DNA of 63,641 bases, the filler included, from Nitrospinota bacterium (GTDB lineage Bacteria; JAUXIQ01): the NCBI GenBank assembly GCA_030620925.1. It is 10 parts of 10 records of this genome, joined end to end, with 100 filler letters (N's around TTAATTAATTAA, not from the genome) between each part and the next. Parts side by side here need not be neighbours in the genome. Positions count along the whole stretch, not along the records: positions 46,680 to 55,076 come from JAUXIQ010000068.1; 9 more parts are not named here. The stretch is one strand, 5' to 3'. Positions 6,584 through 60,934 of this stretch are shown here, in pieces (positions within the stretch are counted from its first letter, which is position 1; each line of letters opens with the position of its first letter). The notes under the pieces were generated by a model. That model saw only the letters and a list, made by a program, of their open reading frames with translations, had not been told where the DNA came from and ran no database searches. Position numbers and translations under genes: made by a program.

Positions 6584-6683
6584 NNNNNNNNNNNNNNNNN
6601 NNNNNNNNNNNNNNNNNNNNNNNNNNNTTAATTAATTAANNNNNNNNNNNNNNNNNNNNNNNNNNNNNNNNNNNNNNNNNNNN
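6584..6683. other. Artificial contig/scaffold linker
   Basis: 44 N + TTAATTAATTAA (stops in all six frames) + 44 N. Confidence 0.99.
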
Positions 6684-18461: not shown

Positions 18462-19475
18462 TTGCCTACTTCGCTCGCAAAAATCGGGAAGTCCTTCGAG
18501 AAAGACCTCCAGGGGGCGACCGATGAGAAGCGCCTGAGCGATATACGGGTAAAATACCTGGGCAAGAAAGGCCTGCTTACATCCATTCGCAAGTCCTTCC
18601 GGGAGTTGAGCCCGGAAGAGCGGCCGGCCGCAGGCAAGGAGCTCAACAGCGTCGTCTCAAAACTGGAGAAGGCGCTGGAAGAGAAGAAGTCCCAGATGGA
18701 GCTGGAAAAGGGATCGTCTGTCGAAAAAGGCTGGATAGACGTAACCCTTCCGGGGAAACGCCCGCCGCTGGGCCGTAAGCACCCCATAACCCAGACCTGG
18801 GAAGAAGTCACCCGGATATTCATGGGCCTCGGTTTCGACGTGGTCGAAGGGCCCGAAGTCGAGCTGGACTACTACAATTTCGAGGCCCTGAACATCCCCA
18901 AAGACCATCCCGCCCGGGACATGCAGGACACTTTTTACGTAACGGAGGAAGTTCTCCTCAGAACCCACACCTCCCCCGTGCAGATAAGGGCCATGGAAAA
19001 CCATCCCCCGCCCATAAGCATCATCTCGCCGGGGAAGGTATACCGCTGCGACGCTGATATAACCCACAGCCCCATGTTCCACCAGGTAGAGGGCCTCAAG
19101 GTAGACAAAAATATCTCCCTGGCCGACCTCAAAGGGGTGCTGGAAGAGTTCGTCCATCAGTATTTCGGCGAAGACACCAAGCTGCGCTTCAGACCCTCCT
19201 TCTTCCCCTTCACCGAACCCAGCGCGGAAGTGGATATAAGCTGCGTTATGTGCGATGGAATGGGATGCAGGGTCTGCGGGCATAGCGGCTGGCTCGAGAT
19301 ACTGGGGTCGGGCATGGTCGACCCGGAAGTGTACCGTTTCGTGGGATACGACCCGGAAAACTGGACGGGGTTCGCTTTCGGGATGGGCCTGGAGAGGATC
19401 GCCATGCTTAAATACGGCATAGATGATATCAGGCTCTTCTTCGAAAACGACCACCGATTCCTCGAACAGTTCTGA
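18462..19475 (+). CDS. pheS: Phenylalanine--tRNA ligase alpha subunit
   Basis: [26 protein letters not shown] and [13 protein letters not shown] motifs. Confidence 0.99.
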
Positions 19476-19493
19476 CCGGGGAGCCACCATGCC

Positions 19494-20563
19494 ATGATGC
19501 TGACATACAACTGGCTTAAAGAATTCGTCGATTGCCGGCTCTCCCCCCAGGAGCTCACCGAAAGCCTCACCATGGCGGGCATAGAAGTCGATGCCGTGAA
19601 AGAAGCGAGCGAAGAGTTCAGCGGCATCATCGTGGGGAACATTCTCTCAGTGCGCCTCCACGAAAAGGCCGACCACCTCCAGGTATGCACGGTGGATATC
19701 GGAAGCGAGAAGCTCCCCATCGTCTGCGGTGCACCCAACATCGCCGTCGGTGATGCAAGTCCGGTGGCGCTGCCGGGGACCCTTCTTCCCAACGGAGCCA
19801 CGGTGCAGAAGGTGGAAATCAGGGGAGAAACCTCCGTGGGTATGCTCTGCTCGGCCGAAGAGCTCACCCTCATGGACGACACCTACGGCATTTTGCAGCT
19901 AGATAAAAAGCTCAAACCCGGCGCAGAGCTGGCCGAAGCCCTGGGCATCCATGACACCGTGCTCGATCTGAACATAACCCCCAACCGCGGCGATTGCTTA
20001 AGCGTCGCCGGCGTGGCCCGCGAAGTCGCCGCCATCACGGGAGCCCCGTTCAAGTATCCGGAGTTTGAGCTAAAAGAAGAGGGGGAACCCGCGGATAGAT
20101 GGACGTCGGTGGAGATACTGGAACCCGAGCTGTGCCCCCGATATACAGCCCGCATTATCGCAGGAATCAAGATCAAGTCTTCACCCCTCTGGATGCAGCT
20201 CCGCCTCAAGGCCGCCGGTATGCGACCCCTCAACAATATCGTGGATATCACCAACTACGTCATGCTGGAGCTGGGCCAGCCGCTTCACGCCTTCGACTAT
20301 CACCTGCTGAAAGAAAACCGCATCATAGTCAGGCGGGCGGAGAAGGGGGAACTGCTGGTCACCCTGGACGGCAAAGCGCGCACCCTCGACGACACCATGC
20401 TGGTGATAGCAGACGCCGGGAGAAGCGTCGCCCTTGCCGGCATCATGGGCGGACAGGATACAGAGGTCACAGAAAAATCAAAGGACATACTCCTGGAAGC
20501 CGCCCACTTCGACCCCCTCACCAACAGGAAAAACGCCAAAATATTGGGGCTGGATACGGAGGC
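19494..20563 (+). CDS. pheT: Phenylalanine--tRNA ligase beta subunit (3' truncated by the gap)
   Basis: [17 protein letters not shown] and [19 protein letters not shown] motifs. Confidence 0.98.
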
Positions 20564-20663
20564 NNNNNNNNNNNNNNNNNNNNNNNNNNNNNNNNNNNNN
20601 NNNNNNNTTAATTAATTAANNNNNNNNNNNNNNNNNNNNNNNNNNNNNNNNNNNNNNNNNNNN
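20564..20663. other. Artificial contig/scaffold linker
   Basis: N44-TTAATTAATTAA-N44. Confidence 0.99.
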
Positions 20664-21791
20664 CCCGAGACAGACGGAGAACGCAGAGGAAAAAGTTTTA
20701 AGAGGAGCCCTATGTACGGCGTCCATAAAGAGGCGGGAGCGAGGTTCATCCCTTTCGCCGGCTGGGAGATGCCGGTGCAATTCAGCGGCATAATAGAGGA
20801 ACATATCGCCGTGAGAAGCTCCGCCGGGCTCTTCGATTTAAACCACATGGGCGAAATAGAAGTGATCGGTGACGGGGCGGAAGATTTTCTGCAATACATT
20901 ATCACCAATGATCTGAACGCTATCGGAGACGGTGACGCCCAATATACGGTAATGTGCTATGAAGACGGCGGAACCGTGGATGACCTGCTGGTCTATCGAA
21001 TAAACCGAGAGCGCTATATGTTATGCGTGAACGCCGTCAACACAGAAAAAGATTACCTGTGGATGGTCAAAAACAGTAAAGGTAAAGTCCAGATCACCGA
21101 TAAGACTGCAGACTATGCACTTCTTGCCCTGCAAGGGCCCCATTCTAAAGCCGCTCTTCAACCTTCAGTTAAAGGCGATATGGATGGTTTGAAAAGGTTC
21201 GGTTTTATTCTAGAAGAGATGAACGGCGCCGAGGCGATGATATCTAGAACCGGTTACACCGGAGAGGACGGGTTCGAGATATTTCTCCCTTCAGATAAAT
21301 GCTCTGCGCTCTGGAAGGAGTTGCTGGCGGCAGGAAGCGAGTATAGTATAAAACCTGTGGGCCTGGGAGCCAGGGACACCCTGCGGCTGGAAATGGGTTA
21401 TCCTCTCTACGGCAATGAGCTCAGCCAGGACACCGACCCGTTAGAAGCCGGCCTGGGTTGGGTGGTGAAAATGGATAAAGGCCATTTCATGGGAAGAGAC
21501 GCGCTGCTCTCCCTGAAAGAACAAGGCACAGTGAGGAGGCTGGTGGGTTTGGAGATGATTGATAGAGGAATAGCCCGCCACGGTCATAGAATTTTCAGCG
21601 ATGAGAAAGACGTGGGATATATCACCAGCGGAACTATGTCCCCCTCATTGAAAGTGTCGATCGCCATGGGCTATGTATCTTCCGAAATGGCAAAAGAAGG
21701 CACCGTGCTTGAGGTTGATATCAGGGGGCGTCTGTGTTCCGCCCGGGTGGTAAAAAGGCCGTTTTACAAACCCTCTTCATCGGGCGGATAG
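20664..21791 (+). CDS. gcvT: Glycine cleavage system aminomethyltransferase T (5' end probably in the gap)
   Basis: FAGWEMPVQ, SRTGYTGEDGFE and GLGARDTLRLE motifs; frame stays open upstream of ATG 20712 (FKRSPMY resembles the usual LKRTPLY). Confidence 0.97.
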   Translation, partial: PETDGERRGKSFKRSPMYGVHKEAGARFIPFAGWEMPVQFSGIIEEHIAVRSSAGLFDLNHMGEIEVIGDGAEDFLQYIITNDLNAIGDGDAQYTVMCYEDGGTVDDLLVYRINRERYMLCVNAVNTEKDYLWMVKNSKGKVQITDKTADYALLALQGPHSKAALQPSVKGDMDGLKRFGFILEEMNGAEAMISRTGYTGEDGFEIFLPSDKCSALWKELLAAGSEYSIKPVGLGARDTLRLEMGYPLYGNELSQDTDPLEAGLGWVVKMDKGHFMGRDALLSLKEQGTVRRLVGLEMIDRGIARHGHRIFSDEKDVGYITSGTMSPSLKVSIAMGYVSSEMAKEGTVLEVDIRGRLCSARVVKRPFYKPSSSGG

Positions 21792-22029
21792 GGTTTCAAA
21801 TAAAGGTGGACAGACATTTTGAAAACTTTCTTACAAATACTGGAGCTTCATCCCGACCGGATAAATATATCTATCGGAAGGAGTTGCTGCCGACGGATGA
21901 GCCGATCCATAAAAATTAGTCTTGAACAAATTCTCTTTAGATAGTAAATGAAGGGGGGCAATTTGTCTTAAAGGCATTAACGTGAGATGAAGGCTTTTGA
22001 CTACCAGAATCAATGGGAGAGGAGAGACC

Positions 22030-22425
22030 ATGGAATTTCCGGAGAATCTGAAATATTCCAAAGAGCATGAGTGGACGAGGGTAGAGAGCAATCGGGCGAT
22101 CATCGGTATTACCGACTTTGCCCAGGATGAGTTAGGTGAGATAGTTTTTATCGACCTGCCCGCGGCGGGGACTAATGTAGAGGCCATGGAGACATTCGGG
22201 ACCATCGAATCGGTAAAGACCGTCTCCGATCTGTTTTCGTCTGTGAGCGGCCAGATTGTCGAGGTAAATTCTGCCCTTGAAGACGAGCCGGAATTTATCA
22301 ATAACGATCCCTACGGCGATGGCTGGATAATGATCGTGGAAATGTCCGACCCTAACCAACTCGACGATCTCCTCAACTCTTCTGAGTACCAGAACTACAT
22401 CGAGGAAGAGAAACAGGGAGATTAA
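22030..22425 (+). CDS. gcvH: Glycine cleavage system H protein
   Basis: YSKEHEW, GITDFAQDELG and lipoyl ESVK motifs; ATG after GGAGA. Confidence 0.98.
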   Translation: MEFPENLKYSKEHEWTRVESNRAIIGITDFAQDELGEIVFIDLPAAGTNVEAMETFGTIESVKTVSDLFSSVSGQIVEVNSALEDEPEFINNDPYGDGWIMIVEMSDPNQLDDLLNSSEYQNYIEEEKQGD

Positions 22426-22459
22426 GACGCCCCGCTTGTCTTCAAAGAGGGGACACACT

Positions 22460-27256: not shown

Positions 27257-27356
27257 NNNNNNNNNNNNNNNNNNNNNNNNNNNNNNNNNNNNNNNNNNNN
27301 TTAATTAATTAANNNNNNNNNNNNNNNNNNNNNNNNNNNNNNNNNNNNNNNNNNNN
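27257..27356. other. Artificial contig/scaffold linker
   Basis: N44-TTAATTAATTAA-N44. Confidence 0.99.
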
Positions 27357-32677: not shown

Positions 32678-32777
32678 NNNNNNNNNNNNNNNNNNNNNNN
32701 NNNNNNNNNNNNNNNNNNNNNTTAATTAATTAANNNNNNNNNNNNNNNNNNNNNNNNNNNNNNNNNNNNNNNNNNNN
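32678..32777. other. Artificial contig/scaffold linker
   Basis: N44-TTAATTAATTAA-N44. Confidence 0.99.
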
Positions 32778-38177: not shown

Positions 38178-38277
38178 NNNNNNNNNNNNNNNNNNNNNNN
38201 NNNNNNNNNNNNNNNNNNNNNTTAATTAATTAANNNNNNNNNNNNNNNNNNNNNNNNNNNNNNNNNNNNNNNNNNNN
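38178..38277. other. Artificial contig/scaffold linker
   Basis: N44-TTAATTAATTAA-N44. Confidence 0.99.
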
Positions 38278-42679: not shown

Positions 42680-42779
42680 NNNNNNNNNNNNNNNNNNNNN
42701 NNNNNNNNNNNNNNNNNNNNNNNTTAATTAATTAANNNNNNNNNNNNNNNNNNNNNNNNNNNNNNNNNNNNNNNNNNNN
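42680..42779. other. Artificial contig/scaffold linker
   Basis: N44-TTAATTAATTAA-N44. Confidence 0.99.
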
Positions 42780-45885: not shown

Positions 45886-47043
45886 GTGAGTTACGAGACC
45901 TTAGAAGTGGAGCGGGAGGAATCTTCTGCAATCATAAAGTTGAACAGACCCGACAAACGAAACGCGCTGTCCATTCAGCTCAGGAACGAGATGGTGGAAT
46001 GTCTCGGGGAAATTGAAAGTGATGATGAAGTGAAGGCCGTGCTGGTTACCGGAAACGGCCCCGCGTTTTGCGCCGGTTTCGACCTGGAGGAGTTCAAGAA
46101 CCCGGACCCCGACCATATAAAGGCCATCCAGGAAAGTTCCCGGAGGTTTCACGCCGCGGTCACCGGTTTCCCCAAGCCGCTGGTGGCCGCCATCAACGGT
46201 CCGGCCATGGCGGGAGGGCTCGACCTGGCGCTCATGTGCGACATCCGCCTGGCCTCGGAGAAGGCCCTTTTCGGGCATCCCGAGCTGCGGTTCGGCTCCC
46301 ACGTGCTCTACGGGCTTGTCAAGGAAGCCGTGGGGGGAGGCATGGCCAGGGACCTCTGCCTGTCGGGCAGGAACATCGACGCCGCTGAGGCCCACCGCAT
46401 AGGTCTGGTGAGCAAGTTGACGACTCCGGATAAGCTGATGGAAGAATCGAGGGCCATGCTCGGAGAAATCTGCAAGTCACCCCTCAGAATTCTGGTCTCG
46501 ATGAAAGAGAGGGTCAAGAAATACTCTGCGGAAGCCATAGAAGGAGCCACCTCCAGCGAAGGCGATTCCTTTGTGGATANNNNNNNNNNNNNNNNNNNNN
46601 NNNNNNNNNNNNNNNNNNNNNNNTTAATTAATTAANNNNNNNNNNNNNNNNNNNNNNNNNNNNNNNNNNNNNNNNNNNNCATCCGCCTGGCCTCGGAGAA
46701 GGCCCTTTTCGGGCATCCCGAGCTGCGGTTCGGCTCCCACGTGCTCTACGGGCTTGTCAAGGAAGCAGTGGGGGGAGGCATGGCCAGGGACCTCTGCCTG
46801 TCGGGCAGGAACATCGACGCCGCTGAGGCCCACCGCATAGGCCTGGTGAGCAAGTTGACGACTCCGGATAAGCTGATGGAAGAATCGAGGGCCATGCTCG
46901 GAGAAATCTGTAAGTCACCACTCAGAATTCTGGTCTCGATGAAAGAGAGGGTCAAGAAATACTCTGCGGAAGCCATAGAAGGAGCCACCTCCAGCGAAGG
47001 CGATTCCTTTGTGGATATAATCAGAGAAGGGCTGAAAAAATAG
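45886..47043 (+). CDS. Enoyl-CoA hydratase/isomerase; one gene split by the linker, with a duplicated overlap
   Basis: LNRPDKRNA, FCAGFDL, KPLVAAING.AMAGGLD and HPE motifs; 46242-46579 is repeated at 46680-47017 and the stop is at 47043. Confidence 0.9.
46580..46679. other. Artificial linker between overlapping contigs
   Basis: N44-TTAATTAATTAA-N44 flanked by a 338-bp duplicated sequence. Confidence 0.99.
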
Positions 47044-47064: not shown

Positions 47065-48255
47065 ATGGAGAAGAATAAGAATGAGATGGAGAGCGTTCCG
47101 CGCTCAAGGGAGGACGATTATTCGGATGAGGCCATAGAAACGCGGCGCAGGTGGATCAAGGAGAAGACCGGCGTTGAGCTCAAGCATATGGCCGCACACT
47201 CGGTGACCGGTAAAGACGTGGAGGGGAACATCGAGAACTTCATCGGCGTGGTGCAGGTGCCCGTAGGGCTTGCCGGGCCGCTTAAGGTAAATGGTGAGCA
47301 CGCTGACGGCGTGTTCTACATTCCCCTGGCCACCACGGAGGGGGCGCTGGTGGCTTCCTACAGCAGGGGGATGAGGGCCATAACCGAATCGGGAGGCGCC
47401 GAGGCCCGCCTGTTCAGCGACCACACCCAGGTGACCCCCATGTTCGTCTTTCGGCGGACGGGTGAAGCGGCAGAGTTCCTGGATTGGGTGGACGCCAACT
47501 ACGATAGGATAAAGGAGGTGGCCGAATCCACCACCCGACACGGCAAGCTGCTGAAAATAGACAAGTACCTCATCGGGAGACGGGCGGCGCTCCGCATGTA
47601 CTACTACACCGGGGACGCCATGGGCCTCAACATGATAACCAACGCCTCGGACAGGGCGGCGAGGTTCATAGAAGAGCAGGTAAAGCCCGAGTCCGTTCTC
47701 TTCCCCAGCTCCATGGGCACGGACAAGAAATCGGCGGCCATCAACATGGTCACCGGGCGGGGAAAGAGGGTTTCTGTGGACGTAGTGCTGCCGGAAGAGG
47801 TGGTGGAAAAAAGGCTTCACACAACGCCCAGGGCAATGGCCCAGGGCTTCTTGACCACCGTGGTAGGGAATGCTCAGGCGGGCACCCTCACCCAGTCCAT
47901 GCACCCCGCCAACGGCCTCACAGCTCTGTTAATGGCAACTGGGCAGGACGTGGCCTACGTCCCCGACTCGGTGGCCACCATAACCACCATGGAGTTAACC
48001 GAAGAGGGCGGCCTTTACGTCAGTCTCTACATGCCCTGCCTCATCCTGGGCACCGTGGGGGGCGGCGTGAGCCTGGGCGGCTTCAGGGAGGCGCTGGAGA
48101 TAATGGACTGCTACGGTGCGGGCAAAGCCAGGAAGTTCGCCGAGATAGCCGCGGCGGCGGTCCTAGGCGGGGAGATTTCGACCCATGCAGCAACAATCAC
48201 CGGAGAGTTCTCCCAGGCTCATAACCGGCTGGGCCGCAACCGGCCCCGGGAATAA
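47065..48255 (+). CDS. Class I (NADPH-type) HMG-CoA reductase family protein, divergent
   Basis: ENFIG, ATTEGALVAS, GDAMGLNM, TDKK, HPAN, GQD.A, GTVGGG and C-terminal AH motifs. Confidence 0.9.
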   Translation: MEKNKNEMESVPRSREDDYSDEAIETRRRWIKEKTGVELKHMAAHSVTGKDVEGNIENFIGVVQVPVGLAGPLKVNGEHADGVFYIPLATTEGALVASYSRGMRAITESGGAEARLFSDHTQVTPMFVFRRTGEAAEFLDWVDANYDRIKEVAESTTRHGKLLKIDKYLIGRRAALRMYYYTGDAMGLNMITNASDRAARFIEEQVKPESVLFPSSMGTDKKSAAINMVTGRGKRVSVDVVLPEEVVEKRLHTTPRAMAQGFLTTVVGNAQAGTLTQSMHPANGLTALLMATGQDVAYVPDSVATITTMELTEEGGLYVSLYMPCLILGTVGGGVSLGGFREALEIMDCYGAGKARKFAEIAAAAVLGGEISTHAATITGEFSQAHNRLGRNRPRE

Positions 48256-48322: not shown

Positions 48323-48697
48323 TCAATCACCTACCGTCTCGTATTCTTCCCACCACCTCACATCCACGGCTTTCAGCTTGGGGACTACTCTGCCTCTGAC
48401 CTTTACCTTCGCGCTGGCTTTGAGGGGTGCTTTACGTATCTGTTCCTCGATGGCCGTGCTTCCGCCCAGGATGTATACGTTACCATCATCGGTGATGAGC
48501 AAGTGCGCTATATGATCGATCGGACATACGCCCGCTTTTCCGTGCATTGTCCCATCGGCTGAGATGCAATATATGAAGCCGGTGAGAGTTGTTTCTCCCG
48601 TGGATATCTCGTCGGCTAGTGCGTTAGTTCCATAAAACATAACAAGCATTGCGGCCACAAGGAGCCCCGGGAGTATCAACCTCCGCGTCTGTTTCAT
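48323..48697 (-). CDS. Small secreted hypothetical protein with Cys/His cluster
   Basis: Signal peptide ending ALA; C..H..C..H..H; beta-rich TLTG...KVKVRG pattern (OB-fold-like); GGAGG RBS. Confidence 0.8.
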   Translation of the reverse strand: MKQTRRLILPGLLVAAMLVMFYGTNALADEISTGETTLTGFIYCISADGTMHGKAGVCPIDHIAHLLITDDGNVYILGGSTAIEEQIRKAPLKASAKVKVRGRVVPKLKAVDVRWWEEYETVGD

Positions 48698-48790: not shown

Positions 48791-49951
48791 TTAAAATTTT
48801 ACCTCCAACTGGGCCAGGAACTCGTTGTTTTCAACGTCTACGGCGCCGCCCGTGTCCTCATCGATCAAGCTGTATTCGAGTTTGACCTTCACGTTCTTCT
48901 GAATCTCGATGATGCCCGCCAGGGTGAAAACCTGCCAGTCCCAGGTGAGGACTTCGCCGGGGTCGTTGATGAGTCCGTTGTCCAGGTCGTTATACCTTAT
49001 CAGAACGACGATGGACTTGGGCCTGTTCCAGGGGGTCTTGAACTTGTAGGAGGGCTCTATATACCATCCTTTGCGGTCCAGGTCTCCGGTGCCGGTGCTT
49101 ATGTATTCGAACACACAATTTAATTTCTTCTGCCACTTATGAGTCAGGCGGAAGCCATACATGCTCTTCGAGTCTTCCAGTGAGCTGTAGCCGCCGGAGG
49201 CAAGCTCAGTATTGAGCGCCGAGACTTCATCCGGGGTAAGCTTGCTGAAGAAGACCCAGCCCAGAACGTCTATCTTACCGAACTGTCCGAAATCCTGTTT
49301 CCTTCCGGCGCCGAAACCTATCTCCTTGTTCTCGCTCTCGTCACCGACGTTGCGGTCTTCATGCAGGAACTTGGCGCCGCCGTCCTCCATCACCTTTTGC
49401 GTTGTCAGCTCTGTGGCGCTCTTTGCTATTCTCAGGCCGTTGGTGTAGGAGAAGAACCAGTAGGCGAAATCCAGCTTTCCGCCCACGGTGATCCCCAGGT
49501 CGTCATCCCGCCAGAAGGCGGAACCGTTCAGCGGGTAGGTCTCGGTGATCCGGCTTCGCTTGATGAAGCGGTCTTCCAGCCCCACCTTAATGAACGTTTT
49601 TCCGGGAAAACCGGCAAAGGTTACGTGGCCCTCTTCCAGGATGGTCTTGCCGTCCGTCATCGCTATTTCAGCCTTCATGCTGACGTTTTCTTTTAGTTTA
49701 ATCTTGGGGATCAGGTAGAACTGGTCGATCTTGAACTGGCTTTGTGAATCTTTGGCATCTCCCTGGGCGTCCCTGTATTCGATCTCTAGCTCGCCCCCTA
49801 TCTCCCATTTCTCTCCTTTAACGGATAAAAGGCCCCCTTCGTAGGGCTCGCCCACGTCGGCAAACACCTTTGTTGCTGGTGTTAAACCAAACACCAGCAA
49901 AAGAGCCAGCATTGTGATGAACAGTCGTGATGGAATTATTTTCATCCACAT
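48791..49951 (-). CDS. Outer-membrane beta-barrel porin-like protein
   Basis: Signal peptide, amphipathic beta strands, C-terminal FLAQLEVKF (BAM signal ending in Phe). Confidence 0.85.
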   Translation of the reverse strand: MWMKIIPSRLFITMLALLLVFGLTPATKVFADVGEPYEGGLLSVKGEKWEIGGELEIEYRDAQGDAKDSQSQFKIDQFYLIPKIKLKENVSMKAEIAMTDGKTILEEGHVTFAGFPGKTFIKVGLEDRFIKRSRITETYPLNGSAFWRDDDLGITVGGKLDFAYWFFSYTNGLRIAKSATELTTQKVMEDGGAKFLHEDRNVGDESENKEIGFGAGRKQDFGQFGKIDVLGWVFFSKLTPDEVSALNTELASGGYSSLEDSKSMYGFRLTHKWQKKLNCVFEYISTGTGDLDRKGWYIEPSYKFKTPWNRPKSIVVLIRYNDLDNGLINDPGEVLTWDWQVFTLAGIIEIQKNVKVKLEYSLIDEDTGGAVDVENNEFLAQLEVKF

Positions 49952-50383: not shown

Positions 50384-51064
50384 TCAAGTTTCAACAAGTT
50401 GTTTAGCGATGTTTTCTATTTCCAGCTCCAGGAAGCTCTTGGTCAGCCTGGCTATTTCACGATAAAAGCTTAATTGGGCTTCAGAGATAACCTTGTCGCA
50501 AAATTCAGGGATCCACCTGCTCAGGTGCTCTTCCATGAATTTCTTCTCAATCTTCAGGAAGTATATGGCTTCCTGTTTGTCTTCCTTCCGCCACGCCTCC
50601 CCTTCCTTCAGCAACAGCTCCCGCATGAACTCCAGCTCCACACTGATATGATCGGGGAGACCCTGGTAATCGGATTTATATTCCAGCCCCGTCGATTCGA
50701 TAAACTTCTTGACCTCAACGGTGGACATTCCCCAGAGTAAGCCACACTGGCCGTCATCCCTCTGGTGATGGACCGACTCATGGGGGGAAATATGTTTTCC
50801 GGGACCGATGAACAGCCTGGCGTATTCCACCGCCAGGTCCTCGAGCAGGTCGTCCCCTGCTTTCTGGAGAAAATCGTTCTCAAACTGAACCCCCAGGTCG
50901 GATAACGCCTGTAGAACAGGGGGCTCGGTAATTTGCTTTAAAAGGTCCGATTTCAGCTCCGTTCGGTAAATAACGGCCAGCAGACCGTAGACGTTGCTCC
51001 GCTCTTGAGACGTCTCGGCGAGGTCTTTCAACTCAACGTCGTTTTCCAAGGAACACATTTTCAT
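50384..51064 (-). CDS. TorD/DmsD family molybdoenzyme maturation chaperone
   Basis: EYARLF.GP, SPHES, PDHISVELEFM and F..EHL..W motifs; start chosen after GCGGGGA. Confidence 0.93.
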   Translation of the reverse strand: MKMCSLENDVELKDLAETSQERSNVYGLLAVIYRTELKSDLLKQITEPPVLQALSDLGVQFENDFLQKAGDDLLEDLAVEYARLFIGPGKHISPHESVHHQRDDGQCGLLWGMSTVEVKKFIESTGLEYKSDYQGLPDHISVELEFMRELLLKEGEAWRKEDKQEAIYFLKIEKKFMEEHLSRWIPEFCDKVISEAQLSFYREIARLTKSFLELEIENIAKQLVET

Positions 51065-51114
51065 TAATCCCCGCTTCATCATTAGTTTGAAGCCATCAGG
51101 GTGTGGTTTTAGTG

Positions 51115-51141
51115 GGGGAACCCTCCTTATGAAGGTTCCCC
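51115..51141. repeat. Intercistronic hairpin GGGGAACC...GGTTCCCC
   Basis: Inverted repeat between the catalytic-subunit and chaperone genes; same GGGGGAACC start as the element at 674. Confidence 0.5.
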
Positions 51142-51170
51142 TCATTTAACAACGCATCCGCGTAGGTTGG

Positions 51171-53642
51171 TTATGCTTTGGTGACCTTGACCACAGTGTC
51201 ATACCACCTCTGGCCGCCGGCGATGGGATCGGGGCTGTTAGGGATGACCCAGTTGGGGTGCATCCCGTTGTCCGCCCACCATTTGAGTTGGAGATCCACG
51301 TCTTCCTGTGTCCCCAGAGGCGAGGTCTTACCGGAAGCGTAACGTCCATATTCCCAGTGGCCGCAGTGATTGGAGATGGCGATGACCCCGGGGACTATCT
51401 CCTCGGTAACCCGTGCTTCGGTGGTTATCTCGTTTATGGAGGACTTTACCTTTATCTTCTGGCCGTCCTTTATGCCCAGCTCCTTTGCGGTGGCTGAGTT
51501 GATCCAGGCGGGGTTCTTGTGATAGAGCTCGGTGAGGTACTTGCAGTTCTGGGTGCGGGAATGGGTCTGCGTGTTGAGTTTGTAAGTGGTCAGGATCAAC
51601 TCACCTTTTTTCATCTTTTGATGCTCGGGGATAGGCACCCAGGTGGGTAGAGGTGGGAACCCCTTCTTCTTAAGCTCGTCTGAATAGATGGACAGCTTGC
51701 CCGTATGTCGTCCTATTTTATCCGGCTTGAACCCCAGGTAGGCCACCCCGTTTACCATCTGACCCACGTAGTTCTTGCCCTTCTTGCTGTCGTATTTGTC
51801 TCCTTTGAAGATCAGCCCTGTCTCCGGGTCTACGGTGGTCCCCTGGAGGTCTTTCTCGCTCAATTTTTTGGCGTAGAAGAGATAGTTGGGTTTGGCGTTG
51901 GGGTCATGCCAGGCGCCGTGTTTCTTCATGTACTCGAATCCACCAGCCTCTTTCACACCCTTGGTGTGTTCGCATGCGTCGCGCACGAACTCCTCCGCGG
52001 AGGCAAAGGGGAGCCATTTCTCCATCCCGCCCCCGATTCTCTTGGCCAGTTCGATGCACACGTCCTTGAAGTCCCGTACTTCCCCCAGTGGCTTGACGAT
52101 GGGCTGCCGGATGTAGTATTCGGGGATGCCGTTGTAGGAGACCATATCCTCCCAGTCCCAGCGTTCAAGATAGGTGGTGTCGGGCAGGATGATGTCGGCC
52201 AGGGCCGTCCCCTCACCGTAGAATGGGTCCACAGCTATGTGCATAGGGATGTAGTTTTCGTTGGAGAGGACTTCGATGTTATCCCTGCAGTCCCCGTTGG
52301 AGTACACGGCATTGTAGCAGTAGCTGATGTAGATTTCCGGCCTGCCATACTTGCCCTCTTTGATGAGCTTGAGTACCTGATGGCTGACGTGATGGGTGGG
52401 GAAGGCTATGTTCTCCCCGTCCAGTATTTTAAGTTTCTTCTTGGCTTTGTGAGGTTTGGGGTAGGAGTTCTTCCAGGGGGCTCCCACAGCTTTCAGGCGG
52501 CCCCCCTTATCTCCGATGTAACCGCAGATGGCCTCCAGCATCATGGCCGCCCGCTCGTTCTGGATGCCGTTGTAATGCTGTACCAGGCCTCTATATGACA
52601 ACACCGTTCCCGGTTTGGCCGTTGCGAAGCGGTAAGCTATCTCTTCTATCTTCTGTGAGGGTACTCCGCTTACGCCCTCCGCCCAACTTGAAGTGTACTG
52701 CTTGAGGTGGTCTTTCAGTTTCTGGACGGTGGCGTTGGTCCAGGCCTCAATGAACTTTCGGTCATAGAGCTCGTTCTGCATGATGTAGTTGGCCATGGCC
52801 AGGATGACCGCTCCGTCGGTGCCGGGGCGAACGGGGACCCATTCGTCGGACCTGGCGGCGGTGTTAGAAAACCTTACGTCGAAGGTTACCATGGGCACCC
52901 CCCTGTCATTTCTGGTTTTTATAATCCGTTGCGAAAGGGGGATATGAGAGGTGTGTGTCTCGAATATGTTGGAGCCGAAATTAAGGATGAAGTTGGTGTT
53001 CATGACGTCGGTGATGTCGTAGTGGTGCCCCCAGGTGAGCTCCTGTGCGGTCCACTTGATGCCTTCGCAGATGGAGGTGTGGTTCCCGATGGTAGCAGTC
53101 CCGTATGCGGTCAGGAAGTGGCTCTTGATAATTTTGCTGGAGCTGGCCTTCATGCGCCCGTAATGGAACATGACTTTCTCCGGGTGTCCTTCCTCCCGGA
53201 GCTTCTTCATGGGGGGGACGATCTCCTGGAAAGCCTGCTCCCAGGTGAGGCGCTTCCACTTGCCCTCGCCCCGCTTGCCCACCCGCTTCATGGGGTAGAG
53301 CAACCGGTCGGGGTCGTAAACCTGGTTGACACCCCCTTGCCCCCTGGCGCAGAGGACGCCTCCGGTGCGGGGTAGCTTGGGGTTGCCCTCTATTTTCACC
53401 AGCCTCCCGTCTTCAACGTATCCTATAATCCCGTCCCGGGCCACGCACTGCCAGCAGGCTGAGGGGATGGCCTTGCGCTCTTTCCCGGTGGCGGGGGAGA
53501 TGTCCCTGCCCGCTTCAATGAGGGGGTTCCCTTTCAGTGAGCCTTGGGCCAGAACCTTTTCTGCGCCGAAACCCGAAATAAAAGTGCCTATACCTGCGCC
53601 CAGCTTAAGGAAATTTCGCCTGGTCATTTTCTTCTGCATCAT
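51171..53642 (-). CDS. Tat-exported Mo/W-bisPGD oxidoreductase catalytic subunit (ArrA/TtrA/AnrA-like branch of the DMSO reductase family)
   Basis: TRRNFLK Tat motif; CWQCVARD...C FS0 motif; YDPDRL..P; YGR; NHTSICE; PGTD.A; ADIILPD..YLER. Confidence 0.93.
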   Translation of the reverse strand: MMQKKMTRRNFLKLGAGIGTFISGFGAEKVLAQGSLKGNPLIEAGRDISPATGKERKAIPSACWQCVARDGIIGYVEDGRLVKIEGNPKLPRTGGVLCARGQGGVNQVYDPDRLLYPMKRVGKRGEGKWKRLTWEQAFQEIVPPMKKLREEGHPEKVMFHYGRMKASSSKIIKSHFLTAYGTATIGNHTSICEGIKWTAQELTWGHHYDITDVMNTNFILNFGSNIFETHTSHIPLSQRIIKTRNDRGVPMVTFDVRFSNTAARSDEWVPVRPGTDGAVILAMANYIMQNELYDRKFIEAWTNATVQKLKDHLKQYTSSWAEGVSGVPSQKIEEIAYRFATAKPGTVLSYRGLVQHYNGIQNERAAMMLEAICGYIGDKGGRLKAVGAPWKNSYPKPHKAKKKLKILDGENIAFPTHHVSHQVLKLIKEGKYGRPEIYISYCYNAVYSNGDCRDNIEVLSNENYIPMHIAVDPFYGEGTALADIILPDTTYLERWDWEDMVSYNGIPEYYIRQPIVKPLGEVRDFKDVCIELAKRIGGGMEKWLPFASAEEFVRDACEHTKGVKEAGGFEYMKKHGAWHDPNAKPNYLFYAKKLSEKDLQGTTVDPETGLIFKGDKYDSKKGKNYVGQMVNGVAYLGFKPDKIGRHTGKLSIYSDELKKKGFPPLPTWVPIPEHQKMKKGELILTTYKLNTQTHSRTQNCKYLTELYHKNPAWINSATAKELGIKDGQKIKVKSSINEITTEARVTEEIVPGVIAISNHCGHWEYGRYASGKTSPLGTQEDVDLQLKWWADNGMHPNWVIPNSPDPIAGGQRWYDTVVKVTKA

Positions 53643-53691
53643 TCTCTCCTTCTCAGAACCGGTCAGCATTACATATTGAAGAGTATCTCTG

Positions 53692-54537
53692 CTACTTGTA
53701 TTGAACCGGCGTCCGGCCTTCTCTGATAGCCAGCGTAGCCTTGTTCATTTTGTTGGACTCTACTATCTGGGCATAGAAGTCGTCATCGAGGCCGATGTAA
53801 TAGCACTGGGGATCGGTGTTTAGCTCCGGCCTCAAAACGCGCGTCTGGTTAGAGGCTATGAGCCGTGATAACTTGCTTGTAGGGTCGTTGAGGTTGCCTG
53901 CCAGTCGCGCATGCCCCTGGCAGGTGTTGACGCATGAGGGGATGACGCCCTCTGCAAGCCTGTGGGCGCAGAGGGAGCATTTATCAGCGGCTTTCATCTC
54001 CAGCATGCCACCGGCGGCTTTCACGGGGTCCAGATACCGGACGCCATAGGGGCAATCATCTACGCAGGCACCGCAGCCGATGCATCTGTCCTGGTCTATC
54101 AAGACTATCCCGTCCGGGCGTTGGTAAGTGGCGCGTTTTTTATATTTCTTTTTGGTACCGTCGGGAAAGGTTAATACTGCTTCTTCCTCATCCACAGGGC
54201 AGTTCTCTATGCAAGGTGGGTTTGCGCAGTGGTTGCAGAGCCAGGGGATGAAAGTGCGTTTCACCTGCGGGTAGGTGCCCGCTACCTTTTCGCCCACACC
54301 GGCGCGAAACACACCCAGCCGAAGGTCGAACTCAGTCTTACATGCCACCGCGCAGGCGTTGCATCCTATGCAACGCCTCAGGTCCACAAGGAAGCCCCAT
54401 CTTACGGGGCCTGTAGACCTCCGCACCGCCTCCGCCGTTCCGGATAAGGCAGCCAAGCCCAGGCCCGTCGCCAGCCCGGCTCCTAGGGCAAGTTTCATAA
54501 ATTCGCTTCGGCTCACCTCTTCATAATCTTCTCCCAT
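53692..54537 (-). CDS. 4Fe-4S dicluster electron-transfer subunit (DmsB/ArrB-like)
   Basis: CIGCNACAVAC, CNHCANPPC...CP, CIGCGACVDDCP and KCSLC...PSCVNTC motifs; N-terminal signal-like peptide. Confidence 0.95.
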   Translation of the reverse strand: MGEDYEEVSRSEFMKLALGAGLATGLGLAALSGTAEAVRRSTGPVRWGFLVDLRRCIGCNACAVACKTEFDLRLGVFRAGVGEKVAGTYPQVKRTFIPWLCNHCANPPCIENCPVDEEEAVLTFPDGTKKKYKKRATYQRPDGIVLIDQDRCIGCGACVDDCPYGVRYLDPVKAAGGMLEMKAADKCSLCAHRLAEGVIPSCVNTCQGHARLAGNLNDPTSKLSRLIASNQTRVLRPELNTDPQCYYIGLDDDFYAQIVESNKMNKATLAIREGRTPVQYK

Positions 54538-55076
54538 CAGATTTATCCCTCCCTCTCTTGGAATTATTATGTGTGGCCACGTCACTTAAACATAATTCAG
54601 GTGCATAAACAAAACGCGATGTGCACGTATAATTGCATTTATATATGCAATAATCGTTCTAAATCAAGGGTTACATTAACTTTTGTTAACACTTGGAAGC
54701 TGATATTTTTTGTTTCGCCTCTGTTCTCCAAGGCACTTAAGAAGGGATTTGCCCGTATGCCCTTTAAATAAGGGGTAGATGGGGTGGTGTGAGGTTCTAT
54801 TTTAAATATCTGTGGATGGATTTACCTGTTATTTTTTATGATTCAAATTATTTTTCTTCGAGTTCATGCCTTGAAAAAAACCATTTTTATATCACCAAAC
54901 GGTAACATAGGTTACTCTTTAGTAACCGGTGAGCCTTAAAACTCGGTATAATGCCGGATGTCAAAGGTTATGTTTCTTTACCTTCTCCCAGAGGTTTTTC
55001 CTGCTGATCGCTCGCGGTCGATTACTCTAACTATAAAAGTGGGACAATGATTGGAAGCAGATCATTAGCGGGGTCC

Positions 55077-55176
55077 NNNNNNNNNNNNNNNNNNNNNNNN
55101 NNNNNNNNNNNNNNNNNNNNTTAATTAATTAANNNNNNNNNNNNNNNNNNNNNNNNNNNNNNNNNNNNNNNNNNNN
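55077..55176. other. Artificial contig/scaffold linker
   Basis: N44-TTAATTAATTAA-N44. Confidence 0.99.
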
Positions 55177-55736
55177 CCCTTAAAGATAATATTGAACCCC
55201 GGCTCGTCATGCAGGACGGACTGATAGCGGGCATGTCGGTGATTGGGGAACGTTTCAAGAACAACGATATATACCTCCCGGACGTCCTGGTGGCGGCCAG
55301 GGCCATGAACGCCGGACTGGCCATCGTGGAACCGTTACTGGCCGAAGCCGGCGAGGAACCGGTAGCCAGAGCGGTCTCAGGCACGGTGAAGGGCGACCTG
55401 CACGACATCGGGAAAAACATAGTGGTCATGATGCTGCGCGGAGCGGGCTTCCAGGTCGCCGATCTGGGGGTGGACGTGGCGCCCGAAAAATTCCTTGAAG
55501 CCGCCAGCGAGACCGGCGCCCAACTGGTCACCTTGTCCTCCCTGCTCACCCTCTCCATGCCCACAATGGAGGCGGCTCTGACGGCCATCAGAGACAGCGA
55601 CTTGCGGGATAAAGTCAAGGTGATGGTGGGCGGCGCGCCGGTTACTCAGCTATACGCCGACGGCATAGGGGCCGACGGCTACGCCTCCGACGCCGCAACC
55701 GCCGTGGAAAAAGCCAAAGAGCTCCTGGGCTTGTGA
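55177..55736 (+). CDS. Methyltransferase corrinoid protein (5' truncated)
   Basis: Cap domain GL.AGM..IG.RF; B12 motif GDLHDIGKN; DLGVDV; VMVGGAPVT. Confidence 0.95.
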
Positions 55737-55817
55737 AGAAATTGAACTGTGGCAGGCGCGGGGATGTTTTTTTAAGACCGGGATGCCTGTCCCCAAAACG
55801 AAAAGGGGAAACTAATC

Positions 55818-56879
55818 ATGGTTGAGATGACTTCACGGGAGAGGGTGCTCAAGACCTTCGAGCGCAAGATACCGGACAGGGTCCCCCTCTTCACCCAGGG
55901 CCTCGACCCCATTTTTATCAAGGAATTGGGAGGTGGCAACCCCTACCGGGCACTGGAAGCGCTTGAGGTGGACATCTTTCCCATCAGGAGCATGGTATGG
56001 TGTGAGGGTCGGCCCCAATTCGCTTCATTGAAAGAGGAACTCCCTCCTGAAATGGTGCTGTCCGGCGGCTTCTTCGGGGGTTGGGAGGGTGTTGACGAGT
56101 TCGGGCGCATCTGGAAACAGGGCTCATACATGGGCGGTATGGTGAAAACTGAGGAGGACATCGAAAAATACGTGCCTCCTTTGAAACTGGAGGAACGCAC
56201 GGACCCCGAACAGGCAAAGGCGATAATGGAAAAATTCAGTCACAAGGCTTTCACCCTCTCCTCCCACACCGGCCCCTTCGGCATGGCCATGGAGAGCATG
56301 GGCCAGGTGGAGTTCTGCCTGGCTTTCATGGACAACAGGGAACTGATACGCAAGCACCTGCGCGCCCGCACCGATTGGTTCATAGGCATCGCTCAATACG
56401 CCCAGGAGCTGGGCGTGGACCTCGTTCTCATGGGCGACGACGTGGCCTACAAGGAACGCACCTTCATTTCGGCGGAAGATTTCAACGAGATGGTCATACC
56501 CGAATACGGGCGCATCTGCCAGGCCGTGGACCTGCCGGTGATTTGGCATTCCGACGGCTACACGACCCCCCTCATGGAGGGAGCCGTGAAAGCCGGATTC
56601 GCCGCTGTGCATGCCCTGGAGCCCGCCGCCGGGGTGGACCTGGGGGAGATCAAGAAAAACTACGGGGAAAAGCTGGTGCTTATGGGAAACGTTGATGTGG
56701 GTGACGTCCTATGCAACGATGATCTTGAGGCTGTGAGGAAGGACATTGACCGCTGCATGGCCCAGGCCAAGGAGGGAGGGGGTTATATGCTTTCGGACTG
56801 CAACTCCATTCATGCTGCATGTAAAACCGCCGCCCTTAAGGAAATGTTTCGCTACGGGAAAGAGGTTGGAAAATATTGA
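55818..56879 (+). CDS. Uroporphyrinogen decarboxylase family protein (MtaA/CmuA-like methyltransferase)
   Basis: MTSRERV...PDRVP, DEFG, GDD.A, HSDG, GNVD and GGGY motifs; adjacent to the corrinoid protein. Confidence 0.88.
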   Translation: MVEMTSRERVLKTFERKIPDRVPLFTQGLDPIFIKELGGGNPYRALEALEVDIFPIRSMVWCEGRPQFASLKEELPPEMVLSGGFFGGWEGVDEFGRIWKQGSYMGGMVKTEEDIEKYVPPLKLEERTDPEQAKAIMEKFSHKAFTLSSHTGPFGMAMESMGQVEFCLAFMDNRELIRKHLRARTDWFIGIAQYAQELGVDLVLMGDDVAYKERTFISAEDFNEMVIPEYGRICQAVDLPVIWHSDGYTTPLMEGAVKAGFAAVHALEPAAGVDLGEIKKNYGEKLVLMGNVDVGDVLCNDDLEAVRKDIDRCMAQAKEGGGYMLSDCNSIHAACKTAALKEMFRYGKEVGKY

Positions 56880-60834: not shown

Positions 60835-60934
60835 NNNNNNNNNNNNNNNNNNNNNNNNNNNNNNNNNNNNNNNNNNNNTTAATTAATTAANNNNNNNNNN
60901 NNNNNNNNNNNNNNNNNNNNNNNNNNNNNNNNNN
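60835..60934. other. Artificial contig/scaffold linker
   Basis: N44-TTAATTAATTAA-N44. Confidence 0.99.

Follow-up and report, generated by a model that had tools for sequence, protein, structure and literature searches.

The operon analysed here lies at positions 50384-54537, on the minus strand, of a 63,641-nt stretch of DNA from a Nitrospinota bacterium, and its three genes are called B (iron-sulfur subunit), A (catalytic subunit) and D (chaperone). The whole stretch is referred to as the window. The products belong to a periplasmic molybdoenzyme of the dimethyl sulfoxide (DMSO) reductase superfamily, and the closest described systems are the antimonate reductase Anr (of Geobacter sp. SVR and, as AnrA, of Desulfuribacillus stibiiarsenatis), the arsenate respiratory reductase Arr, the alternative arsenite oxidase Arx, the polysulfide and thiosulfate reductases Psr/Phs, and the tetrathionate and selenate reductases Ttr/Srd. 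The anr cluster of Geobacter sp. SVR, the subject of an abstract by Kambara and colleagues in 2024, reportedly has the order X-S-R-B-A-D and encodes a periplasmic enzyme; X is a PhnD-like binding protein, S a sensor kinase and R a sigma-54-dependent regulator. In ttrBCA and srdBCA the order is B-(NrfD)-A, NrfD being the membrane anchor. ArrA carries the motifs (R/K)GRY and HSS(I/V)CAE, and ArrB is not known to have a signal peptide of its own. Anchor-less AB enzymes that are fed by a cytochrome are already known: the available part of PMC2762525 describes ArrAB of Shewanella as a soluble periplasmic AB enzyme that has no membrane subunit and is fed by the tetrahaem cytochrome CymA. The available part of PMC5908839 describes X-S-R control in some arsenate respirers, the gene pattern arxB'ABC/arxXSR, and a conserved cysteine that is present in AioX, ArxX and ArrX but absent in PhnD.

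The window operon can be assigned with high confidence to a soluble AB molybdoenzyme, exported by the twin-arginine translocation (Tat) pathway and accompanied by its chaperone, which belongs to a large uncharacterised clade and has a form without a quinol-oxidising subunit of its own. The proposal that its substrate is an arsenate- or antimonate-like oxyanion, reduced as a terminal acceptor, is given a probability of about 0.45-0.5. It is made because of the sensor genes, porin genes and ars genes near related operons, the residues of the predicted active site, and a position in the phylogenetic trees that is not settled. Being drawn from context, the substrate is the weakest step of the explanation.

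The operon and its relation to described enzymes

The three genes are tightly packed and are read in the order B-A-D:

53692-54537, minus strand: gene B, electron-transfer subunit, 281 aa from an ATG preceded by a GGAGGG ribosome-binding site
51171-53669, minus strand: gene A, Tat-exported catalytic subunit with a Mo/W-bis-pyranopterin guanine dinucleotide (bisPGD) cofactor, 832 aa
50384-51145, minus strand: gene D, TorD/NarJ-family maturation and Tat-proofreading chaperone, 253 aa

This order, and the identification of the products as an Fe-S subunit, a Tat-exported catalytic subunit and a TorD chaperone, had been given in the initial annotation and are borne out by the open reading frames (ORFs) and by Pfam. 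B contains four [4Fe-4S] ferredoxin-type cysteine motifs (Fer4_11, 61.8 bits, and other 4Fe-4S dicluster models) and its own hydrophobic N-terminal signal, which ends in AEA. The signal of most related B subunits is [ST]RRxF[LIV]K, and a few others have RK or RN. The N-terminus of the window B (54450-54537) reads SRSEFMK, with a single Arg, and the B of the closest relative reads TRSEF (4063-4150 of that locus). This relative, L001, is a contig from an uncultured member of the Nitrospinota, and its A shares 83% identity with that of the window. D matches Nitrate_red_del (PF02613) with 97.9 bits against a gathering threshold of 22.2, and is below the specific equivalog cut-offs for TorD (82.8 bits, cut-off 132) and DmsD (44.9 bits, cut-off 162). 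It may start at the ATG at 51145 or at one of the internal ATGs from 51082; the true start is probably further in.

A has both the domains and the twin-arginine signal of the periplasmic type of Mo/W-bisPGD enzyme. Pfam finds PF04879 (Molybdop_Fe4S4, 33.5 bits), PF00384 (Molybdopterin, 119.9 bits) and PF01568 (Molydop_binding, 67.9 bits), and the signal RRNFLK occupies residues 17-22. The stored copy of the protein, P0001, has 822 aa and starts 10 codons further in. The motifs HYGRM (within HYGRMKASS) and NHTSICE, to which the initial annotation had drawn attention, are both present. The cysteine of NHTSICE is the putative Mo ligand; it aligns with the ligand cysteine of ArrA (structure 6cz7), and all 28 aligned relatives have it. 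The motif of the iron-sulfur cluster FS0 reads C-x2-C-x3-D...C, with Asp replacing the third Cys (residues 73-81, 53429-53455). This Asp is shared by most anchor-less relatives and by part of the Rhodocyclales sister group described below, and the branch of relatives with an inserted NrfD has Cys. With the Asp, FS0 may be either an Asp-ligated [4Fe-4S] or a [3Fe-4S] cluster. All three proteins are full-length and keep the family's invariant residues, and the predicted model of A has a predicted local distance difference test (pLDDT) score of 81.

The window proteins fall short of the curated NCBIfam models, the cut-offs for PhsA and ArrA being those of the equivalogs:

A against PhsA (NF012032): 349.5 bits, below the cut-off of 694
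A against ArrA (NF041714): 178.8 bits, below the cut-off of 1600
A against TtrA: 124.6 bits, below the cut-off of 1750; A has about 830 aa and the model a length of 1022
B against TtrB: 195.7 bits, below the cut-off of 416
B against DsrO: 169.1 bits, below the cut-off of 200
B against ArrB: 150.5 bits, below the cut-off of 450

None of the 62 more distant full-length representatives that were scanned reaches an NCBIfam equivalog cut-off either. The 120 top-scoring relatives of A share 56-100% identity with it (the window's own protein heads the list), represent many phyla and have generic names only. For the clade to which A belongs, identities of 57-67% are seen across many phyla, nearly all of them uncultured. 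A HMMER search of 1.84 billion representatives returned 14287 proteins at E<=0.001, a count that describes the wider superfamily of which the window clade, with at least 120 closer members, is a part; 1535 proteins remain at E<=1e-30. The SVR protein is not among the best 120 relatives (at least 1083 bits, 56-60% identical at that rank), because all 120 are on contigs of at most 375 kb and the SVR genome is a closed one of 4.7 Mb (PMC8032467). No Geobacter or Desulfuribacillus name occurs among the 360 matches listed for three protein searches, which were started from the window A, the Azoarcus sister-group protein and a basal representative of the window clade. The reductase is not mentioned in the available parts of two SVR genome notes, one of them PMC8032467.

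The predicted fold of A matches PsrA (template modelling (TM) score 0.74) and ArrA (TM 0.76) about equally well, and these are its best structural matches; the PsrA structure, 2vpw, comes first by Foldseek E-value. In the HMMER alignment with ArrA 6cz7, four residues are common to both proteins: the Arg of GR, the His that precedes the ligand, the Cys ligand and the Lys behind it. Where ArrA has Tyr next to GR, A has Met, and the Ser of ArrA is Thr in A. Glasser and colleagues reportedly described R165, Y166, H189, S190, C193 and K198 in 2018 as residues of ArrA that bind arsenate.

Two trees were calculated. The first (FastTree) has 131 rows, representatives of at least 680 aa picked by hand from the best 120 relatives and the HMMER matches. 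The second (IQ-TREE in quick mode, LG+G4) has 61 rows, selected by hand from those 131 together with two Arx-type rows; its only support measure is the Shimodaira-Hasegawa-like approximate likelihood ratio test (SH-aLRT), and it is rooted on a Vibrio DmsA-family protein. The labelled references are PhsA from an Escherichia coli plasmid and the two Arx-type proteins, without verified ArrA, PsrA, TtrA, SrrA, SrdA or AnrA sequences; the plasmid collection contained PhsA, DmsA-family and Arx-type loci only. The Arx-type proteins, from Cereibacter azotoformans ORIO and Sulfuricella denitrificans, were labelled by their X-S-R genes and FeS-A-FeS-NrfD-TorD architecture. Strain ORIO may be a photoarsenotroph, which a literature search did not confirm.

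The window protein falls into a clade, called W below, with a support of 99-100%. The sister of W (82-88% support) is a group found in Aromatoleum, Thauera and Sulfuricystis (Rhodocyclales), which includes a protein from plasmid pAZKH of Azoarcus sp. KH32C that is 41.5% identical to A. Together with a set of shorter proteins, W and its sister make up a superclade with 100% support. The superclade joins Arr/Arx to the exclusion of the PhsA clade with an SH-like support of 99 in FastTree and an SH-aLRT of 96 in IQ-TREE. W itself lies outside the Arr/Arx clade (16 rows in FastTree, 9 in IQ-TREE), which holds the Arx-type references and ArrA-like representatives, and in both trees it is also outside the clade of the E. 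coli plasmid PhsA. It is thus firmly in neither labelled clade; which of the two is nearer can be read either way from the sequences. The GR motif is common to W, the sister group and the Arr/Arx group and is absent from the PhsA clade, as is the motif HTSICEGGKW. The earlier statement that the enzyme is neither ArrA nor ArxA agrees with the curated scores, the trees and the motifs.

The shorter relatives of the superclade, of about 750 aa (P0130, P0131, P0141, P0147, P0136, P0163 and others), have no GR motif, and many have no ligand Cys, which suggests that they may be non-catalytic molybdopterin-like subunits. The group was considered as a home for AnrA and rejected, since many of its members lack the Cys ligand.

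Each described system shares some features with the window operon and differs in others. The reported anrXSRBAD order is that of L001 in full, and the window has B-A-D and a remnant of R. ArrAB of Shewanella sp. ANA-3 (6cz7) is, like the predicted window enzyme, a soluble anchor-less AB pair, and its GR, His, Cys ligand and Lys align with those of A. However, the identity in the structural alignment is about 20%, the gene order is A-B, and the ArrA motifs, which are visible in the 6cz7 alignment as (R/K)GRY and HSSVCAE, correspond to YGRM and HTSICEG in the window, where Asp also takes the place of the third FS0 Cys. Most B subunits of the W family have an RR signal, whereas ArrB is not known to have one. 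Arx shares X-S-R regulators, a TorD-type chaperone and the GR motif with relatives in W and is among the nearest labelled neighbours in both trees, but it has an extra FeS gene before A, and B and NrfD after A. ArxA has the motifs YGRGWG and GHSSMCSDG, the former in place of the YGRMKA of the window, and W is a clade separate from it. PsrABC and PhsABC provide the best curated model and the best solved sequence match for A and have the same fold, and the anchor found in 21 relatives is of their PsrC/NrfD family; their order is A-B-C (as seen for phsABC), and the window A has no anchor, scores half the PhsA cut-off and possesses the GR motif. The B-(NrfD)-A order of TtrBCA and SrdBCA is that of the same 21 relatives. 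TtrB is the best model for the window B, which, as is the case for TtrB, has its own signal peptide, but A is far shorter than the TtrA model and far below its cut-off.

Gene neighbourhoods and the missing anchor

A scan of species genomes returned 68 related loci, nearly all from metagenome-assembled genomes of many phyla. Their gene contents were counted by greedy ORF calling, BLAST clustering and a Pfam search with one representative per cluster. B lies upstream of A in 58 of the 68 loci, the other ten being cut or having no detectable B. Where at least 800 nt are available downstream, D follows A in 50 of 55 loci. Of the 58 loci, 36 have B and A adjacent, 21 have a gap of about 1 kb between them and one has a gap of 669 nt. 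Among the 21 loci with the gap of about 1 kb, which are mostly from Alpha- and Gammaproteobacteria, 18 contain an ORF of the NrfD cluster somewhere and 13 have it between B and A; one representative of this cluster matches Pfam NrfD (the PsrC/NrfD family) with 134 bits. Genes for molybdenum cofactor (Moco) synthesis or molybdate transport are found in 19 of the 68 loci.

Multihaem cytochrome genes occur in 15 of the 36 adjacent-type loci. Eight of the 36 have an NrfD gene elsewhere in the locus, as part of a second A-B-NrfD operon or of cytochrome/FeS/NrfD modules. Among the adjacent-type loci, 14 extend for 5 kb or more to either side, and seven of these 14 have neither NrfD nor cytochrome c; the anchor-less form is therefore not an artefact of contig ends. 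In the window, Pfam and NCBIfam scans gave no match to NrfD/PsrC in the ORFs between 48323 and 54537, in keeping with the initial annotation, and the relatives show that such a form is real. The suggestion that electrons arrive from a separately encoded partner fits the relatives as well.

Some of the relatives have additional redox genes nearby. In three loci of the Aminicenantes type, one of them titled Eubacteriales (L006, at 18700-22442, L007 and L008), a second A-B-NrfD molybdoenzyme operon lies about 6 kb downstream of B-A-D, after Moco genes, and is preceded by a small multihaem cytochrome. In L018, L040, L041, L047 and L058, from Desulfobacterota and Nitrospiraceae, B-A-D is flanked by multihaem cytochromes, a second FeS gene with NrfD, and a cytochrome b561-like gene; these flanking genes look like a separate quinol:cytochrome module.

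The window consists of ten contigs, which were artificially joined through N44-TTAATTAATTAA-N44 spacers, and gene neighbourhood across the spacers is therefore meaningless. The operon contig covers 46680-55076 (8397 bases) and ends 540 nt upstream of B. The end of the contig at 42780-46579 (46242-46579) overlaps the start of the operon contig (46680-47017) by about 338 nt with imperfect identity, and these two contigs are adjacent in the genome because their ends overlap in this way. The overlap falls within an enoyl-CoA hydratase gene, the same C-terminal peptide being read twice. The absence of an anchor is strictly shown for these two contigs only. The 55 ORFs on the other contigs include no NrfD, c-type cytochrome, PhnD-like binding protein, sensor kinase or sigma-54 regulator, the window being about 63 kb of the genome. 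A search for NrfD or multihaem partners and X-S-R regulators, as had been recommended, thus found none in the ten contigs, apart from a remnant of R with 16 codons.

The 540 nt upstream of B align with the spacer between the regulator gene and B in L001, which has the full order X-S-R-B-A-D, with 72% column identity. Three features can be recognised in this region:

54961-55011, minus strand: 3' remnant of a sigma-54 response-regulator gene, AISRKNLWEKVKKHNL and a stop, 16 codons (coding 55011-54964)
54911-54926, minus strand: palindrome GTTAC-N6-GTAAC, a candidate binding site for the lost regulator
54646-54661, minus strand: homologue of a -24/-12 (sigma-54) element, TAGAACGATTATTGCA against TGGTACGATAATTGCT in L001, in which the GG of the -24 reads AG

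The peptide AISRKNLWEKVKKHNL is identical in 12 of 16 positions to the C-terminus of the sigma-54-dependent regulator of L001 (tblastn, E 0.01). An in-frame stop lies five codons upstream of the remnant, and the 59 nt beyond (65 nt by another count), up to the contig end, are unrelated. The palindrome occurs seven times in about 1.0 Mb (the related loci and the window contig), of which two are in tandem in L001 and one is at the homologous place in the window. No canonical sigma-54 promoter was found upstream of the window's B. Because the upstream DNA is homologous to the regulator-B spacer of L001 and a remnant of R is kept, the window operon descends from an X-S-R-B-A-D cluster, whose sensor genes have either been deleted or been lost at a faulty contig end. 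An anchor gene just past the contig end, which together with a PsrA/TtrA assignment would have undermined the initial annotation, is therefore unlikely, and the idea of such a hidden anchor was rejected, given also that the relatives' own anchor falls between B and A. If the contig end is genuine, the loss of X-S-R and the altered -24 element leave the control of the operon in this genome open.

From what is known of the superfamily, D would hold the Tat signal of apo-A until the cofactor has been inserted, and A and B would then be exported in the folded state. Electrons would pass from the four [4Fe-4S] clusters of B through FS0 of A to the Mo atom, ligated by the Cys of NHTSICE. The relatives suggest that the enzyme lacks its own subunit for quinol oxidation and that its donor is encoded elsewhere, possibly as multihaem c-type cytochromes or as a cytochrome/FeS/NrfD module of the kind found beside the operon in some relatives. 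Feeding by such a separate donor would resemble that of Shewanella ArrAB by CymA. By comparison with the relatives, an OprO/P-like porin might admit the anionic substrate through the outer membrane, and a group-15 oxyanion, arsenate or antimonate, would be reduced as the terminal electron acceptor.

The substrate

Some clues to the substrate come from the sensor genes of the relatives. An X gene is present in 11 of the 36 adjacent-type loci (Pfam Phosphonate-bd, 204 bits with one representative; PhnD-like) and is mostly followed by genes for a sensor kinase and a sigma-54 regulator. The cysteine of the AioX/ArrX type (F[IV]C[ST]G) is found in 10 of these 11 X proteins. The X of L006 matches ArrX (6x6b) with 205 bits; its scores are 121-123 bits with AioX and no more than 69 with PtxB/PhnD. 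The sister group contributes L069, on plasmid pAZKH of Azoarcus sp. KH32C (52528-72999), which has the order B-NrfD-A-D, divergent X-S-R genes, and arsA and ACR3 alongside; its X is 52% identical to that of Sulfuricella. Azoarcus sp. KH32C is a cultured denitrifier, and relatives that are 80-91% identical occur in Aromatoleum, Thauera aromatica and Sulfuricystis, so hosts of this type would be tractable organisms for functional testing.

Porin-like genes are a second recurring neighbour, present in 15 of the 36 adjacent-type loci. The outer-membrane protein encoded downstream of D in the window has no Pfam match to Porin_O_P and only a weak one to OMP_b-brl. In a profile-profile comparison (hhalign 82%, E 1e-5, 308 columns) it aligns with the Porin_O_P-type proteins encoded in other loci, by which it appears to be distantly related to the phosphate-selective porins O/P. 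In L004, L015 and L023, relatives of the window porin are encoded immediately upstream of B. For clusters 7 and 16 of the related loci, which are porin-like by position only, no relation to the window porin family could be detected.

Several points weigh against reduction of an arsenate- or antimonate-like oxyanion. W has no functionally characterised member. A scores nearer to PhsA than to ArrA, B is nearest to TtrB among the NCBIfam models, and among solved structures the sequence of A matches the Thermus PsrA 2vpw (223 bits) better than ArrA 6cz7 (158.7 bits). An approximately unbiased (AU) test does not reject the alternative tree in which the superclade groups with PhsA (p = 0.156, log-likelihood difference 26). 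The genes for X, S, cytochrome c and NrfD are absent from all ten window contigs. The X gene occurs in 0 of the 21 NrfD-type loci, and ArsR and/or ArsC of the low-molecular-weight phosphatase type are near only 4 of the 68 loci; the way in which such context counts were obtained (see above) is itself a reason for caution. The X of L001 lacks the cysteine, having SFGAV there, and scores 75 bits with PtxB, 69 with ArrX and 40 with AioX. Finally, according to the available part of PMC5908839, X-S-R phylogeny tracks organisms and not enzymes, so that a resemblance to ArrX carries little weight for the identity of the ligand. The oxyanion reductase that had been proposed at the outset gains indirect support from the X-S-R sensors, the OprO/P-like porins and the ars genes, whereas a robust affinity to the arsenate reductases did not emerge.

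The same scores speak for an unlikely alternative, a sulfur-compound reductase of the Psr, Phs or Ttr kind that would use polysulfide, thiosulfate or tetrathionate and would have lost its membrane subunit or never possessed one. It also draws on the first place of 2vpw by Foldseek, on the AU test, and on the name 'thiosulfate reductase / polysulfide reductase chain A' that the Joint Genome Institute (JGI) gives to some relatives. The B-NrfD-A arrangement of 21 of the 58 relatives, too, is the order of ttrBCA and srdBCA. The scores, however, are far under the curated cut-offs (694 for PhsA, 416 for TtrB, 1750 for TtrA), the trees and motifs separate W from the PhsA clade, and the genes nearby encode AioX/ArrX-type sensors and phosphate-type porins or are ars genes. 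Rhodanese or sulfur-transfer genes were not noted near W loci, although no scan was aimed at them. Were the substrate a sulfur compound, the enzyme would be an ordinary Psr/Phs-like reductase, and the annotation 'molybdopterin-dependent oxidoreductase' would be adequate.

Arr and Arx are close relatives that work in opposite directions, and the enzyme might accordingly be of the Arx kind, oxidising arsenite (or antimonite) under anaerobic or micro-oxic conditions and handing the electrons on to cytochromes or quinone. This is rather improbable. In its favour, the nearest labelled clade holds the Arx-type enzymes of Cereibacter azotoformans ORIO and Sulfuricella denitrificans, the sister-locus X of Azoarcus sp. 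KH32C resembles the Sulfuricella X, and many hosts come from lithotrophic lineages (Nitrospinota, Acidiferrobacterales, Mariprofundaceae, Gallionella). But the X of L006 is far closer to ArrX, an arsenate binder, than to AioX, an arsenite binder; anaerobes that carry multihaem cytochrome modules are common among the hosts (Desulfobacterota, Aminicenantes, Firmicutes); and the ArxA motif YGRGWG is absent. The direction of the reaction is not readable from a sequence.

A still smaller chance is given to another anion, such as selenite, selenate, tellurate, vanadate or a P- or S-containing oxyanion, in a sub-branch that would sense it through a PtxB/PhnD-like protein. The X of L001, with its missing cysteine and its preference for PtxB, points in this direction, as do the chromate-transporter and TauE/SafE genes near some relatives and the position of the clade below all curated family cut-offs. 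Only one of the 11 X proteins is of this kind, however, and the catalytic motifs of the window A are the same as in relatives with an arsenic-type X. That the locus is decaying or silent in this genome, which is compatible with the other readings, is very improbable: just the last 16 codons of R are left behind an in-frame stop, the GG of the -24 element is altered and X, S and R genes are absent from all ten contigs, but A, B and D are intact with their invariant residues, the last 59 nt may be an assembly artefact and the window is a small part of the genome.

It is possible, though doubtful, that W and its Rhodocyclales sister represent a third independent lineage of As/Sb respiratory oxidoreductases, distinct from Arr/Arx and from the characterised Anr. 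Such a lineage would be spread over dozens of phyla, most of them uncultured, with Nitrospinota and marine Alpha- and Gammaproteobacteria among them, would exist in interchangeable quinol-coupled B-NrfD-A-D and cytochrome-coupled B-A-D forms, and would often have the FS0 Asp. Gene surveys for arrA, arxA and aioA would then miss a large share of environmental As/Sb redox cycling. Estimates of As and Sb mobility in sediments, aquifers and oxygen-poor waters usually rely on a few marker genes, namely arrA, arxA, aioA and lately anrA, and if W acts on As/Sb oxyanions, the current markers under-count the process and overlook whole phyla. If AnrA falls in W, the window enzyme is a new member of the Anr family; otherwise W is a further uncharacterised lineage. 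W also offers a natural comparison of two wirings of one catalytic module, through an inserted NrfD or through separate cytochromes.

The porin unit and the rest of the window

The genes downstream of D form a unit of their own:

50235-50207, minus strand: sigma-70-like promoter TTGACA-17-TATCAT, 11 of 12 consensus positions, ahead of the porin gene
48791-49951, minus strand: outer-membrane beta-barrel protein, 386 aa, with a signal peptide and about 16 predicted strands
48323-48697, minus strand: small secreted protein, 124 aa, of no known family
48309-48272, minus strand: strong terminator, which ends the porin unit

The initial annotation had placed the operon between an upstream non-coding region and a porin promoter. 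The promoter has a counterpart in the sigma-70-like site, found by a consensus scan that gave 6 sites against 5.7 expected in shuffles; the upstream part proved to be a contig end with the remnant of R. The model of the porin, with its 16 or so strands, is of low confidence (pLDDT 56.5). The small secreted protein has no relative in the 68 loci and, judging from its position, is probably co-transcribed with the porin.

The spacers between the ten contigs are the following:

6584-6683, 20564-20663, 27257-27356, 32678-32777 and 38178-38277: N44-TTAATTAATTAA-N44 spacers
42680-42779, 46580-46679, 55077-55176 and 60835-60934: further N44-TTAATTAATTAA-N44 spacers

Beside the porin unit, at 47065-48255 on the plus strand, lies a gene for 3-hydroxy-3-methylglutaryl-coenzyme A (HMG-CoA) reductase of the NADPH type (378.5 bits with Pfam; 354.6 bits with TIGR00533, whose cut-off is 441.8), which is an uncommon gene in bacteria. 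The next contig opens, at 55179-56879, inside the gene for a protein with a B12-binding domain, which is followed by a URO-D-like gene of the methyltransferase type; together these genes suggest a corrinoid methyltransferase system.

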